Of a stretch of DNA of 64,000 nt, positions 40,401 through 43,400 are shown piece after piece. The stretch is taken from the NCBI RefSeq assembly GCF_045037415.1, contig NZ_CP173438.1; one strand, 5' to 3'. Position 1 is the first letter of the stretch; each line of letters opens with the position of its first letter. Position numbers: made by a program. Source of the DNA: Escherichia coli. GTDB taxonomy: Bacteria > Pseudomonadota > Gammaproteobacteria > Enterobacterales > Enterobacteriaceae.

Positions 40401-43400
40401 GAAGGTAATCCGCAGCCGGTTTTTGCCAATACGGAAAAATTGAACGATGCTGTGGAAGAGCTGCGTCAGTTGCTCGATAACCACCATGACCTGAAAGTCT
40501 TGGAAACACCAATCTATGGTTATGTGTGGCTGAACATGGAAACGGCACATCAGCTTGAGTTGCTATCGAATCTGATTTGCCGGGCCTTGCGCAAATAATT
40601 CCTGAACTTCAGAATCATCTTGCTGCTGCTTCGATTCAGCAAGGATAAAGGGTATGATAGTGAAAAGGGATAAAAGCATTGTCATCTGCGGCAGCTATGA
40701 GTAATGTTGGCCCTAACGAATAGCGGTTGCTTAAACGAATCCGACTCTCACATTATCAGGGGTATAAAAATGGAAACTACCAAGCCTTCATTCCAGGACG
40801 TACTGGAATTTGTTCGTCTGTTCCGTCGTAAGAACAAACTGCAACGTGAAATTCAGGACGTTGAGAAAAAGATCCGTGACAACCAGAAGCGCGTCCTGTT
40901 GCTGGACAACCTGAGCGATTACATCAAGCCAGGGATGAGCGTTGAAGCAATCCAGGGCATCATCGCCAGCATGAAAGGTGACTATGAAGATCGCGTTGAC
41001 GATTACATCATCAAAAATGCCGAGCTCTCCAAAGAACGCCGCGATATCTCCAAAAAGCTGAAAGCTATGGGCGAAATGAAAAACGGCGAAGCGAAGTAAT
41101 TCCCGTTTTATTCAATGAGGGTTGCCCGGCAACCCTCATTGCTCATTGATTCTTATCTGTGTATCACCGTCATCATTCTCATCTGAGAACCAATCGAAAT
41201 TAACAACAGCCTTCTTCTGTATGCAGCAAGGCAAAAAGTTCTGTAACTCCATTGTTATTAACTGCACTGGTTACTAACACGTTGTGCGCTCCAGCTTCCC
41301 GTAACCAACTTGTCACCAAAGATATTTGTTCCATGCTGGCTAAATCTGCTTTGGTTACTACTCCAATGACCGGGTGATTCATGGCCCGGTAGGGCGTTTT
41401 TACCTCTAATTCCTGCTTCAGCGCTGAGATTCCTGCTTGTTGCCGGAAAAGCAGGCACCTGCCGTCTGAACGGTATCGATCCGGAAGCGTATCTGCGCCA
41501 TATTCTGAGCATACTGCCGGAATGGCCCTCCAACCGTGTTGACGAACTCCTGCCATGGAACGTAGTTCTCACCAATAAATAAGCGTCAATACGGTGCTCC
41601 GTTGACGCTTACTTTAATCCGTTTTCTGAGCTTAGATTTTTCTGTTCCTACCCAGACCGTGGATTTGGAATTCATTTTTTGTCAGGTCAATGCTAATCGT
41701 TAAAACGGCCATAACGCACCTCCACTGGAAGGTTTATCAGTAATATCCTACCGTTGCTTCATGGTCGGGGCGTCCATTCCATTATTATCGGTTTTCCTTT
41801 CTGTTTATAAATGAAAACGCCAGCTGTATTCAGGCTGGCGTCAGGGGAAATGAAGCCTGTTGAGTGAGATTCACCGGTTCTGGTGCAGAAGCTGCAGATG
41901 GCGCAGGGTAAGGACATCTTCTCTTGCCTGCTTAATACAGGACAACAGTGCTGTTTCTGTGGTTAATGGCACTATACCCTGTATCACTGCATTGTCTTAC
42001 AGCAACTGGTGAGGGCTGGCATAAGTTGCCGGTGTTTCGGTAGAGTCACGGTCATCCACCACGCGGAGTGAATAACCGTTTTCAGCGGCCTTATTAATCA
42101 GTTCAGTGATATTAACACCATCAATGTCAACGACAATGTGCCCCATATCCAGCGCCTGTACGTTAACGCTGTCGGCTTCCAGTGTCATCATTTCGCCTCC
42201 GGATACTTACCCAGGGTAATGTTATTTACCGTTCTGTAATTGTCGCTGGTCATCAGGCCGGTCGCCCTGCGAGCCCGGAGGATATCGATGCTGTTTATTA
42301 ACTGAGAGCGGGTACAGGCGCTGAATCCCGGCTGGTCGGTACGCACCAGCGCGTATTTTTCCACGAGAAAGTTCACCGCATCACACAGTGAAATGCCTGC
42401 CTCAATATGCTGCTCAATCACACGTTCATCGGCAAACGGTGTGTCATTCAGTGTGAGGCCATAGTGCTGGTCCAGCAGTCGGGACAGCAGTATCTGCCAG
42501 ATTTCAACAGGAGACGGGCGAGAACTGGCCGCCTGCCCGGGTAATACAGGTAATGTTTTCATACTGAAGATTTTCCTGATATGCAGATATAAAAATGGAA
42601 AAGTGGCGTGGTGAAAACACCAGGCCGTAGCAGAAGGCTATTCTGGAGAGTTAATTTTTCATTTCGGGCGTCGGATAAACAGCCAGATAAACGTAACCAC
42701 AACTGCTGAGGGTATCGGCTTTGCAGGTCAGCCCTTTTGCATACAGCGTGACGGTATGCTGATGGCGGGGATTCAGTTCACCGCTGGTGAGCATGAGTTC
42801 CAGTTGTTTCATCAGCAGCGGAAAGGCCTGGTCCAGGTGGTACGCATCTGCATCGCTGAACAGGCCTCTGATACCGGCGCGGTCGGCAAGGTAATGCAAC
42901 CGGTTACCCTCCTGCACCAGACGTGCCCCGAAACAGGGCGTCACGGTGCAGGGCAGTCCCCACCAGAGGCGGTCGTTATGGTCGTCGGGATAATTTGTCT
43001 CATGGAGTTTGTCTGACACGATAAAGTCCTCAGGTCAGCCGGCGCGCAGACCGGCTTCGGTGAAGGTGTATTCGTTGATGAGAAGGGCCTCATCCACAGC
43101 GGCATCAGAGGTCAGCCTGTCGTACTCGTTTTCCAGCTGACGGTACAACCAGAAGGCCAGGTCGCGCAGGGCTTCGCTGACAGCGGCTTCCGCATCGGCT
43201 GTCATAGCCTGACCAGTCGGACTGTTCCGGGTAACAGTGATATCCATGCTGTACGGATGGCAGTAACGTCCCCGGTGGTGGATTTCAGCCTGCAGTTGCC
43301 AGAAGTTACGTTTCTGCACCGCCTGCAGGGCATCCGCGATACGATGGAGTTCATGGTCCTGTGTGGCATACTCCCGGAGCCTTCTGGCTGTTGCTGGCTG

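Follow-up and report, generated by a model that had tools for sequence, protein, structure and literature searches.

The GTPase-like gene fragment found at the edge of a genomic island in Escherichia coli is very probably a dead relic of pduV, left in place when most E. coli lost the propanediol-utilization (pdu) microcompartment operon, and the IS66 remnant close to it would be the product of a separate and later event. We analyzed the fragment within a stretch of 64,000 nucleotides of E. coli DNA (the window), of which positions 40700-42200 (a 1,501-nt query) are 100% identical to many ST131/O25b:H4-type genomes. An earlier note on this DNA had described the fragment as ending exactly where IS66 homology begins, and had read the junction as the scar of an IS-mediated deletion that truncated the GTPase gene. 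However, a 71-nt spacer (41383-41453) separates the two, and 655 genomes share exactly this pduV breakpoint while lacking IS66 at the position. The fragment adjoins the DNA of an island gene across a five-nucleotide microhomology instead. The features identified are given in Table 1.

Table 1. Features at and around the island edge, in window coordinates
Feature	Position	Strand	Basis
yeeA	39498-40598	+	local gene order upstream of tmaR
tmaR (yeeX), backbone gene convergent with the relic	40770-41099	+	PF04363 (DUF496), E 2.3e-45; annotated in O25b:H4 and K-12
Hairpin with a perfect 13-bp stem, between the convergent tmaR and pduV' stop codons	41113-41141		
pduV 3' relic, codons 88-147 plus stop	41200-41382	-	nucleotide identity, PF10662, TIGR02528
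Chimeric 118-aa ORF (= K-12 yoeF)	41200-41556	-	ORF list, translation, segment boundaries
Putative crossover microhomology TTCAT (ATGAA on the coding strand), pduV M88-N89	41378-41382		three-way comparison
71-nt remnant of the 5' part of a DUF4942-protein gene, about codons 38-64	41383-41453	-	via class-B genomes
ISEc23-like right end, 159 nt	41454-41612	+	PF13817, terminal repeat, ISEc23 alignment
Last 42 codons of tnpC plus stop (= K-12 yoeD)	41454-41582	+	PF13817, E 8.5e-16
Right terminal repeat, GTAAGCGTCAACGGAGCACCG	41592-41612		expected number of chance matches, 0
Putative decayed IS1111-like (IS110 family) element, left 171 nt	41613-41783	-	continuous with L008:5237-6606
DUF957 gene fragment, C-terminal 30 codons, island terminal module	41871-41963	-	PGAP
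yeeW, DUF5983 N-terminal domain alone	41997-42191	-	PF25638, E 2e-29; annotation

The pduV relic and its chromosomal setting

The genes yeeA and tmaR (yeeX) are followed by the stretch containing the relic, and then, on the minus strand, by yeeW, cbtA, cbeA and other genes of the island. From the tmaR stop to pduV codon 88 (41101-41382) the sequence shows 96.8% nucleotide identity to strain E2348/69, and this identity ends abruptly at 41382/41383, beyond which the two are unrelated. E2348/69 carries tmaR, an intact 147-aa pduV (WP_001189429.1) convergent to it, then pduU/T/S/Q/P/O and onward to A, followed by pduF, pocR and cobUST. In S. Typhimurium LT2 the corresponding order would be pduV-pduW-pduX-yeeX, a synteny that, if shared, would place the origin of the locus before Escherichia and Salmonella diverged. 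The relic has the same synteny but corresponds to residues 88-147 alone, with 56 of 60 amino acids identical, and lacks both residues 1-87 and the upstream pdu operon. As the syntenic last gene of the pdu operon, adjoining tmaR, it is a pduV orthologue rather than eutP.

The open reading frame that includes the relic matches the PduV-EutP profile (PF10662, E 1.3e-12) with its residues 57-112 on profile positions 86-142 of 143. The last 60 amino acids match TIGR02528 at E 1.6e-10, with a score (41.4 bits against a cutoff of 138.35) far below threshold, as expected because the sequence is a fragment; against the EutP equivalog NF012011 the relic scores 45.8 where the cutoff is 258. In alignment with the intact protein the G4 (TKAD) and G5 (SAV) motifs are retained, as VVTKADLA and VTSAVNNNG, and the frame ends in ...MNHPVIGVVTKADLASMEQISLVTSWLREAGAHNVLVTSAVNNNGVTELFALLHTEEGCC. 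G1, G2 and G3 are absent when the relic is aligned to the 147-aa PduV, with both the P-loop GPSQCGKT (residues 8-15) and DTPGE missing. The match to the EutP/PduV family therefore covers the C-terminal third and not the full length, and the relic is a fragment of a EutP/PduV NTPase rather than a member protein itself. The description of a GTPase C-terminal region without an N-terminus, bearing TKAD and SAV motifs, is thus borne out, as is its relation to full-length EutP/PduV. The feature had been placed at 41200-41611; position 41200 is indeed the last base of the stop codon, but the other limit falls one base short of the IS66 end at 41612.

Between the stop codons of tmaR and the relic there is a hairpin that folds at -21 kcal/mol (z = -4.3), with none of 200 shuffled sequences folding as well, and that matches itself as an inverted repeat in all strains compared. 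It is probably a bidirectional terminator serving tmaR and pduV'. Lacking a T-run, it is missed by a simple terminator scan, and the promoter and terminator scan as a whole returned no more promoter-like or terminator-like sites than shuffled sequence. No family of Rfam release 15, bridge-RNA and seekRNA families included, matched at E <= 1 in this region of the window or in the corresponding class-B region (described below), and alternative ORFs on both strands of 41122-41712 had no Pfam match.

The position of the fragment was likened in the earlier note to that of the yoeF/yoeD pseudogenes of K-12, and the correspondence is close: the stretch differs from MG1655 by 3 mismatches in about 650 aligned nucleotides. 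The 357-nt yoeF (b4538) is the same ORF as the one in the window, and yoeD (b4642) maps to the IS66 tnpC remnant. The two loci share all breakpoints and both flanks, tmaR and yeeW-cbtA-cbeA, and do not differ in structure. The annotated right end of the CP4-44 prophage in K-12 (2078748) corresponds to 41383, which is the pduV junction, and this curated boundary leaves the relic outside CP4-44. The pduV part of yoeF is accordingly chromosomal backbone and not prophage DNA.

What lies behind the junction does differ, as K-12 carries the 12.7-kb CP4-44 and the window carries a PAI-cobU-type island with heme/iron uptake genes (PMC7545054). In a near-identical O25b:H4 genome, which matches the window completely over the 1,501-nt query, an island of about 51 kb separates pduV' from a cbi remnant and cobU. 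Islands at cobU with the Hma and Fbp iron-uptake genes have been named PAI-cobU (PMC7545054), and the island filling the pduV'-cobU gap is this PAI-cobU of the literature.

The island side of the junction

Homology to pduV stops at 41382 and homology to IS66 starts at 41454, and the intervening 71 nucleotides match neither. An origin in the pdu-cob region was rejected, as the spacer has no match in 48 kb of the E2348/69 pdu-pocR-cobUST sequence. The spacer is, however, present with the same sequence and without interruption in a group of 655 genomes (class B, for example strains 5264 and 8479) in which both it and the pduV junction are identical to the window and IS66 is absent. In class B, as traced in L008 and L009, the sequence continues past the spacer for 1,311 bp, through the remaining 5' end of a DUF4942-protein gene and into an IS1111-like element, before it rejoins the window at 41613. 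A search for more distant matches found the two ends of this 1,311-bp stretch adjacent to each other, in related island ends where a DUF4942 gene comes after an intact DUF957 gene. Positions 5046-5236 of L008 match the 5' end of the intact DUF4942 paralogue in L016 with 76% nucleotide identity (E 3e-38), and amino acids 1-53 of the DUF4942 protein align to the class-B allele at E 3e-17.

The assignment of the spacer to the DUF4942 gene is transitive through the class-B genomes because the 24 spacer codons of the window are too short for a direct one; compared directly, the window ORF shows no significant match to the DUF4942 protein (E 0.9). The codons that survive, approximately 38-64 in the window and 1-64 in class B, all precede the DUF4942 domain (PF13708), which occupies amino acids 87-275 of the intact paralogue and is not represented in the remnant. 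With island DNA beginning directly at the end of the relic, the placement of the fragment at an island edge is upheld, and 41382/41383 is the true boundary between island and backbone.

The junction was compared in three sequences. It reads GATTCAT followed by TGACGAGG in intact pduV, GTTTCAT followed by GGCCCAGT in the intact DUF4942 paralogue of L016, and GATTCAT followed by GGCCCGGT in the window, from which the crossover can be placed in TTCAT, although the paralogue that defines this microhomology is just 76% identical to the class-B remnant and the crossover bases are deduced on that footing. Both genes lie on the same strand, and the DUF4942 remnant is fused in frame to pduV codon 88 because the crossover falls in TTCAT, at a Met codon of both genes. 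Such a junction is characteristic of illegitimate deletion at short homologies, and no IS end is involved.

Beyond the IS66 remnant, the window contains the first 100 nt of a transposase gene (ATG at 41712-41710) and a 71-nt left end with a subterminal repeat. The full element is found in class B, at L008:5237-6606 (1,370 bp), just upstream of the DUF4942 gene start codon. Its putative IS110-family transposase gene is frameshifted; it matches PF02371 at E 9.5e-11 (42.4 bits, cutoff 21.3) and PF01548 at E 1.6e-4, with 21.9 bits under a cutoff of 29. The ends outside the gene measure 71 nt on the left and 270 nt on the right, with subterminal repeats ATGG(T/A)CGCCCC, and this layout is IS1111-like. 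ISEc20 was considered as the IS110-family element and rejected, the ISEc20 copy in L012 (the O25b:H4 genome that matches the window) having no DNA or protein similarity to it. A set of matches starting at query position 203 that could have marked an IS110 boundary proved to be IS100 insertions in the same locus. Farther into the island, the DUF957 fragment is 70% identical to the intact DUF957 protein of L016 (tblastn, E 4e-11), and yeeW followed by cbtA and cbeA forms the toxin-antitoxin end module of the island.

The IS66 homology next to the relic, correctly recognized in the earlier note as tnpC, is the right end of an ISEc23-like element. Membership in IS66 is supported by a terminal inverted repeat starting GTAAGCG and by the TnpC C-terminal element (PF13817, DDE_Tnp_IS66_C). 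The remnant differs from an ISEc23 copy elsewhere in the same window (61246-61404) at 5 of 159 nucleotides (97% identity), and plasmid copies of ISEc23 are up to 98.8% identical to it. Compared with ISEc23, 159 of approximately 2,531 bp are left, without tnpA, tnpB, the DDE domain or the left end, so that in place of a complete tnpA-tnpB-tnpC with both ends there is a remnant that cannot transpose. The left part, and with it the left copy of what would be an 8-bp target duplication, is deleted at 41453/41454, a breakpoint that lies inside tnpC and joins the DUF4942-gene DNA without microhomology. As the left breakpoint lies inside tnpC, this is not a classical IS-end adjacent deletion. The terminal repeat points away from pduV and abuts L008 position 6436; the would-be target, TTTAATCC, falls within the transposase gene of the IS1111-like element, some 100 nt from the start of that gene.

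A synthetic junction query for a full ISEc23 at the exact site in the window returned 7 genomes at >=80% coverage, and among those examined, all but two ISEc43-type matches, none had such a copy. In C288 and similar genomes a complete ISEc23 with its target duplication is located 113 nt away and is an independent insertion. NR1441 carries a new ISEc23 copy inside pduV', and H10407 (a weaker match, 75% coverage) is a deletion variant with a third arrangement. None of C288, NR1441 and H10407 is an intermediate, yet they show that ISEc23 has hit this neighborhood repeatedly.

Loss of pdu among E. coli genomes

Among the 5,426 complete E. coli genomes surveyed, 5,417 (approximately 99.8%) carry the pduV stump, while 644 carry the 5' half of pduV together with pduU. 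E2348/69 and about 640 other genomes have the intact 147-aa pduV at the tmaR position. Given that intact pduV occupies this position in pdu-positive strains, the relic marks the loss of pdu. In nearly all pdu-negative E. coli, about 160 nt or more of the pduV 3' end are left, and at least four different truncation endpoints are found in these genomes. The TUM9868 type (approximately 172 genomes) has a stump with 116 nt more, joined to a cbi remnant; that of the STEC308 type has about 9 nt less and is joined to DNA immediately upstream of cobU; and another type ends near 41362. The TUM9868 and STEC308 types are IS-free deletions that, as in the window, leave a pduV 3' stump adjoining tmaR; however, the partner is a cbi remnant or the cobU upstream region in these genomes and an island gene in the window.

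The differing stump lengths and partners indicate that pdu was lost several times independently, in keeping with its published description as an accessory operon that is gained and lost (PMC9997745). Because recombination may have carried the class-A and class-B alleles between genomes, the number of genomes is not the number of events. Most differences between relic copies are non-synonymous, including 8 of 8 between TUM9868 and class B; these counts are too small to prove neutrality, but they are compatible with relaxed constraint on the relic.

Proposed history and its alternatives

We propose that the locus began with an island of the CP4-44/PAI-cobU type on the cobU side of pdu, whose terminal DUF4942 gene was oriented like pduV. 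An IS1111-like element would have inserted just upstream of the DUF4942 start codon, either before or after the deletion that reached pduV. That deletion, at TTCAT, would have eliminated the remainder of the operon along with the first two-thirds of pduV, leaving DUF4942 codon ~64 fused in frame to pduV codon 88. ISEc23 may then have inserted at TTTAATCC in the IS1111-like transposase gene, and a blunt deletion from inside its tnpC back to DUF4942 codon ~38 would have taken out about 2.4 kb of the element together with the 1,311-bp flank. The 159 nt of IS66 left by this last step would account for the accidental 118-aa frame called yoeF. The ISEc23 insertion and the blunt deletion are placed here without an observed intermediate because no full ISEc23 was found at the exact site. 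The IS66 event would thus have been separate and later, taking place 71 nt inside the island, where it destroyed the IS1111-like element and spared pduV.

On the account that follows the earlier note, an IS66 element would have landed within the GTPase gene or beside it, and an IS66-mediated adjacent deletion would have removed the N-terminus, making the remnant the truncating agent. The remnant is just 71 nt from the pduV breakpoint and ISEc23 strikes the neighborhood repeatedly, in NR1441 even inside pduV'. However, because the same junction is found in 655 genomes without IS66, IS66 did not truncate pduV in this way. The DNA abutting pduV is that of the DUF4942 gene and not IS66. Additionally, an adjacent deletion made by transposase keeps an IS end at the junction, whereas here the terminal repeat faces away and the IS is cut internally. 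We consider the IS66 account extremely improbable. Hardly more credible is an ancestral pdu-negative state, in which the relic arrived with the island and pdu was acquired beside it later. The pdu operon in E. coli has been described as an accessory operon gained and lost with neighboring islands (PMC9997745), which would suit such an order of events. Yet the relic and the tmaR-proximal intergenic region are collinear with, and 93-97% identical to, the 3' end of intact pduV, and the variety of stump lengths and of partners (island, cbi remnant, cobU upstream region) requires repeated deletion of a full gene. The curated K-12 island boundary also excludes the relic from the island.

The remaining alternative is that the 60-aa or 118-aa ORF encodes a small protein that is still in use, the C-terminal domain of PduV having been kept for a new role. 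The stump is retained almost universally, the ORF is open in both K-12 and the window, and databases treat it as an ordinary protein. The 118-aa version is, however, a chimera, in which residues 1-34 derive from the antisense strand of the IS66 remnant, 35-58 from the DUF4942-gene remnant and 59-118 from PduV. The start varies by allele, giving versions of 60, 118 and 121 aa with unrelated N-termini, and the multiple truncation endpoints and the mostly non-synonymous substitutions also speak against a maintained protein. P-loop NTPases without G1-G3 neither bind nor hydrolyze nucleotides, and in the absence of a P-loop nucleotide binding by the 118-aa product is impossible. No promoter-like site precedes the ORF; the two such sites in 40600-42000, a count no higher than in shuffled sequence, are both far upstream in the island at about 41800-42000. 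Its retention has a simpler explanation in its position, between the deletions and tmaR with its terminator, since deletions that spare tmaR and the hairpin tend to leave a pduV stump. There is thus very little to recommend a living protein over a dead pduV relic, and judging from its sequence the 118-aa ORF appears to be accidental and non-functional. That retention of the stump is more than accidental, either because the stump and hairpin insulate tmaR from island transcription or because a chimeric YoeF peptide is expressed and active, is also very unlikely.

The locus is already annotated and is not novel, and it represents ordinary genome decay at an island edge. The present analysis adds its layered dissection (the DUF4942 remnant, the IS1111-like element, the microhomology junction and a proposed order of events), of which a limited literature search found no published description, and corrects the causal role given to IS66. 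The yoeF gene is still listed among the uncharacterized y-genes of CP4-44 (PMC11551758). Thousands of database entries present the 60-, 118- and 121-aa versions as ordinary 'EutP/PduV family' or 'ethanolamine utilization' proteins, and the NCBI pipeline labels the locus 'EutP/PduV family' and 'transposase domain-containing, partial'. The biological weight of the finding is small. However, it is useful for annotation, as yoeF is a three-part chimera with no possible nucleotide binding, and the relic conveniently indicates that E. coli strains without pdu had pdu-positive ancestors.

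Insertion sequences around the pduV stump

We identified at least three independent ISEc23 insertion sites across different strains, all within ~1.4 kb adjoining the pduV stump. One insertion lies in the IS1111-like gene and is bounded by a clean target duplication, and another has the stump itself as its target. This ~1.4 kb looks like a local hot spot for ISEc23 insertion.

The IS1111-like element is single-copy in most genomes. Its right end spans 270 nt, its subterminal repeats read ATGG(T/A)CGCCCC, and it sits directly upstream of the start codon of the DUF4942-domain gene. 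Several strains, among them those at L010 and L011, have an IS100 insertion near position 5256-5261 of L008, a locus with the same pduV junction as the window.

The ISEc23 copy in the window has intact tnpC and tnpB genes, is missing its left ~206 nt, and directly adjoins the 3' end of another tnpC of the IS66 family. The right end of this copy and the remnant at 41454-41612, which lie 19.6 kb apart, make up an inverted repeat of 159/160 nt (97%). The two IS66 right ends face inward and flank the island segment between them.

Features of the window and of the comparison loci
Feature	Location	Strand
Decayed IS1111-like (IS110 family) element	L008:5237-6606; window part 41613-41783	
yeeW and DUF957 gene	window 41871-42191	(-)
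pduC; riboswitch and ORF before cobU (E2348/69)	L007:12314-13912 and 17557-18387	
ISEc23 copy	window 61246-63570, with 63566-63980	(-)
tnpC of ISEc23 copy, intact, 537 aa	window 61276-62889	(-)
tnpB of ISEc23 copy, intact	window 62920-63270	(-)
ISEc23 site, strain C288	L013:2870-5400	
ISEc23 site, NR1441	L015:about 1900-4400	
ISEc23 site, H10407	L014	

Island end module and cargo

The yeeW gene of the window encodes only the 64-aa N-terminal domain of DUF5983, and of the DUF957 gene beside it only the last 30 codons remain. The related module of L016, an island end with an intact DUF957 gene, has one 162-aa and one 65-aa gene. The shortening relative to L016 points to a further internal deletion within the end module, common to the window and K-12. 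According to the record annotation (L006, window about 47000-56000), one cluster of the island encodes a patatin-like phospholipase together with proteins of the dynamin and RdcB families. The island further includes genes for a TonB-dependent receptor and an accompanying ABC transporter, and a hypothetical gene split by an ISEc12 insertion.

Relics and loss of pdu

The deposited relic ORFs are named as ordinary proteins, either 'EutP/PduV family microcompartment system protein' or 'ethanolamine utilization protein'. By protein cluster, those of 60 and 121 aa each occur on at least 1,000 contigs and that of 118 aa on 221. Such labels are a widespread annotation artefact.

The annotation of the pdu-positive reference E2348/69 lists pduC as a partial pseudogene. 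Directly before cobU, the expected cbi position is taken up by a cobalamin riboswitch and, after it, a small hypothetical ORF; thus the cbi cluster is already absent even from a genome that retains pdu.

Comparison of L004 (TUM9868), L005 (STEC308) and hits H67 and H123-H125 revealed that E. coli genomes differ in where pduV is cut off, with at least four distinct endpoints (about 41362, about 41373/4, 41382, and one 116 nt longer), every one of them in the middle part of the 444-nt gene. These differing endpoints show repeated and independent loss of pdu in E. coli.
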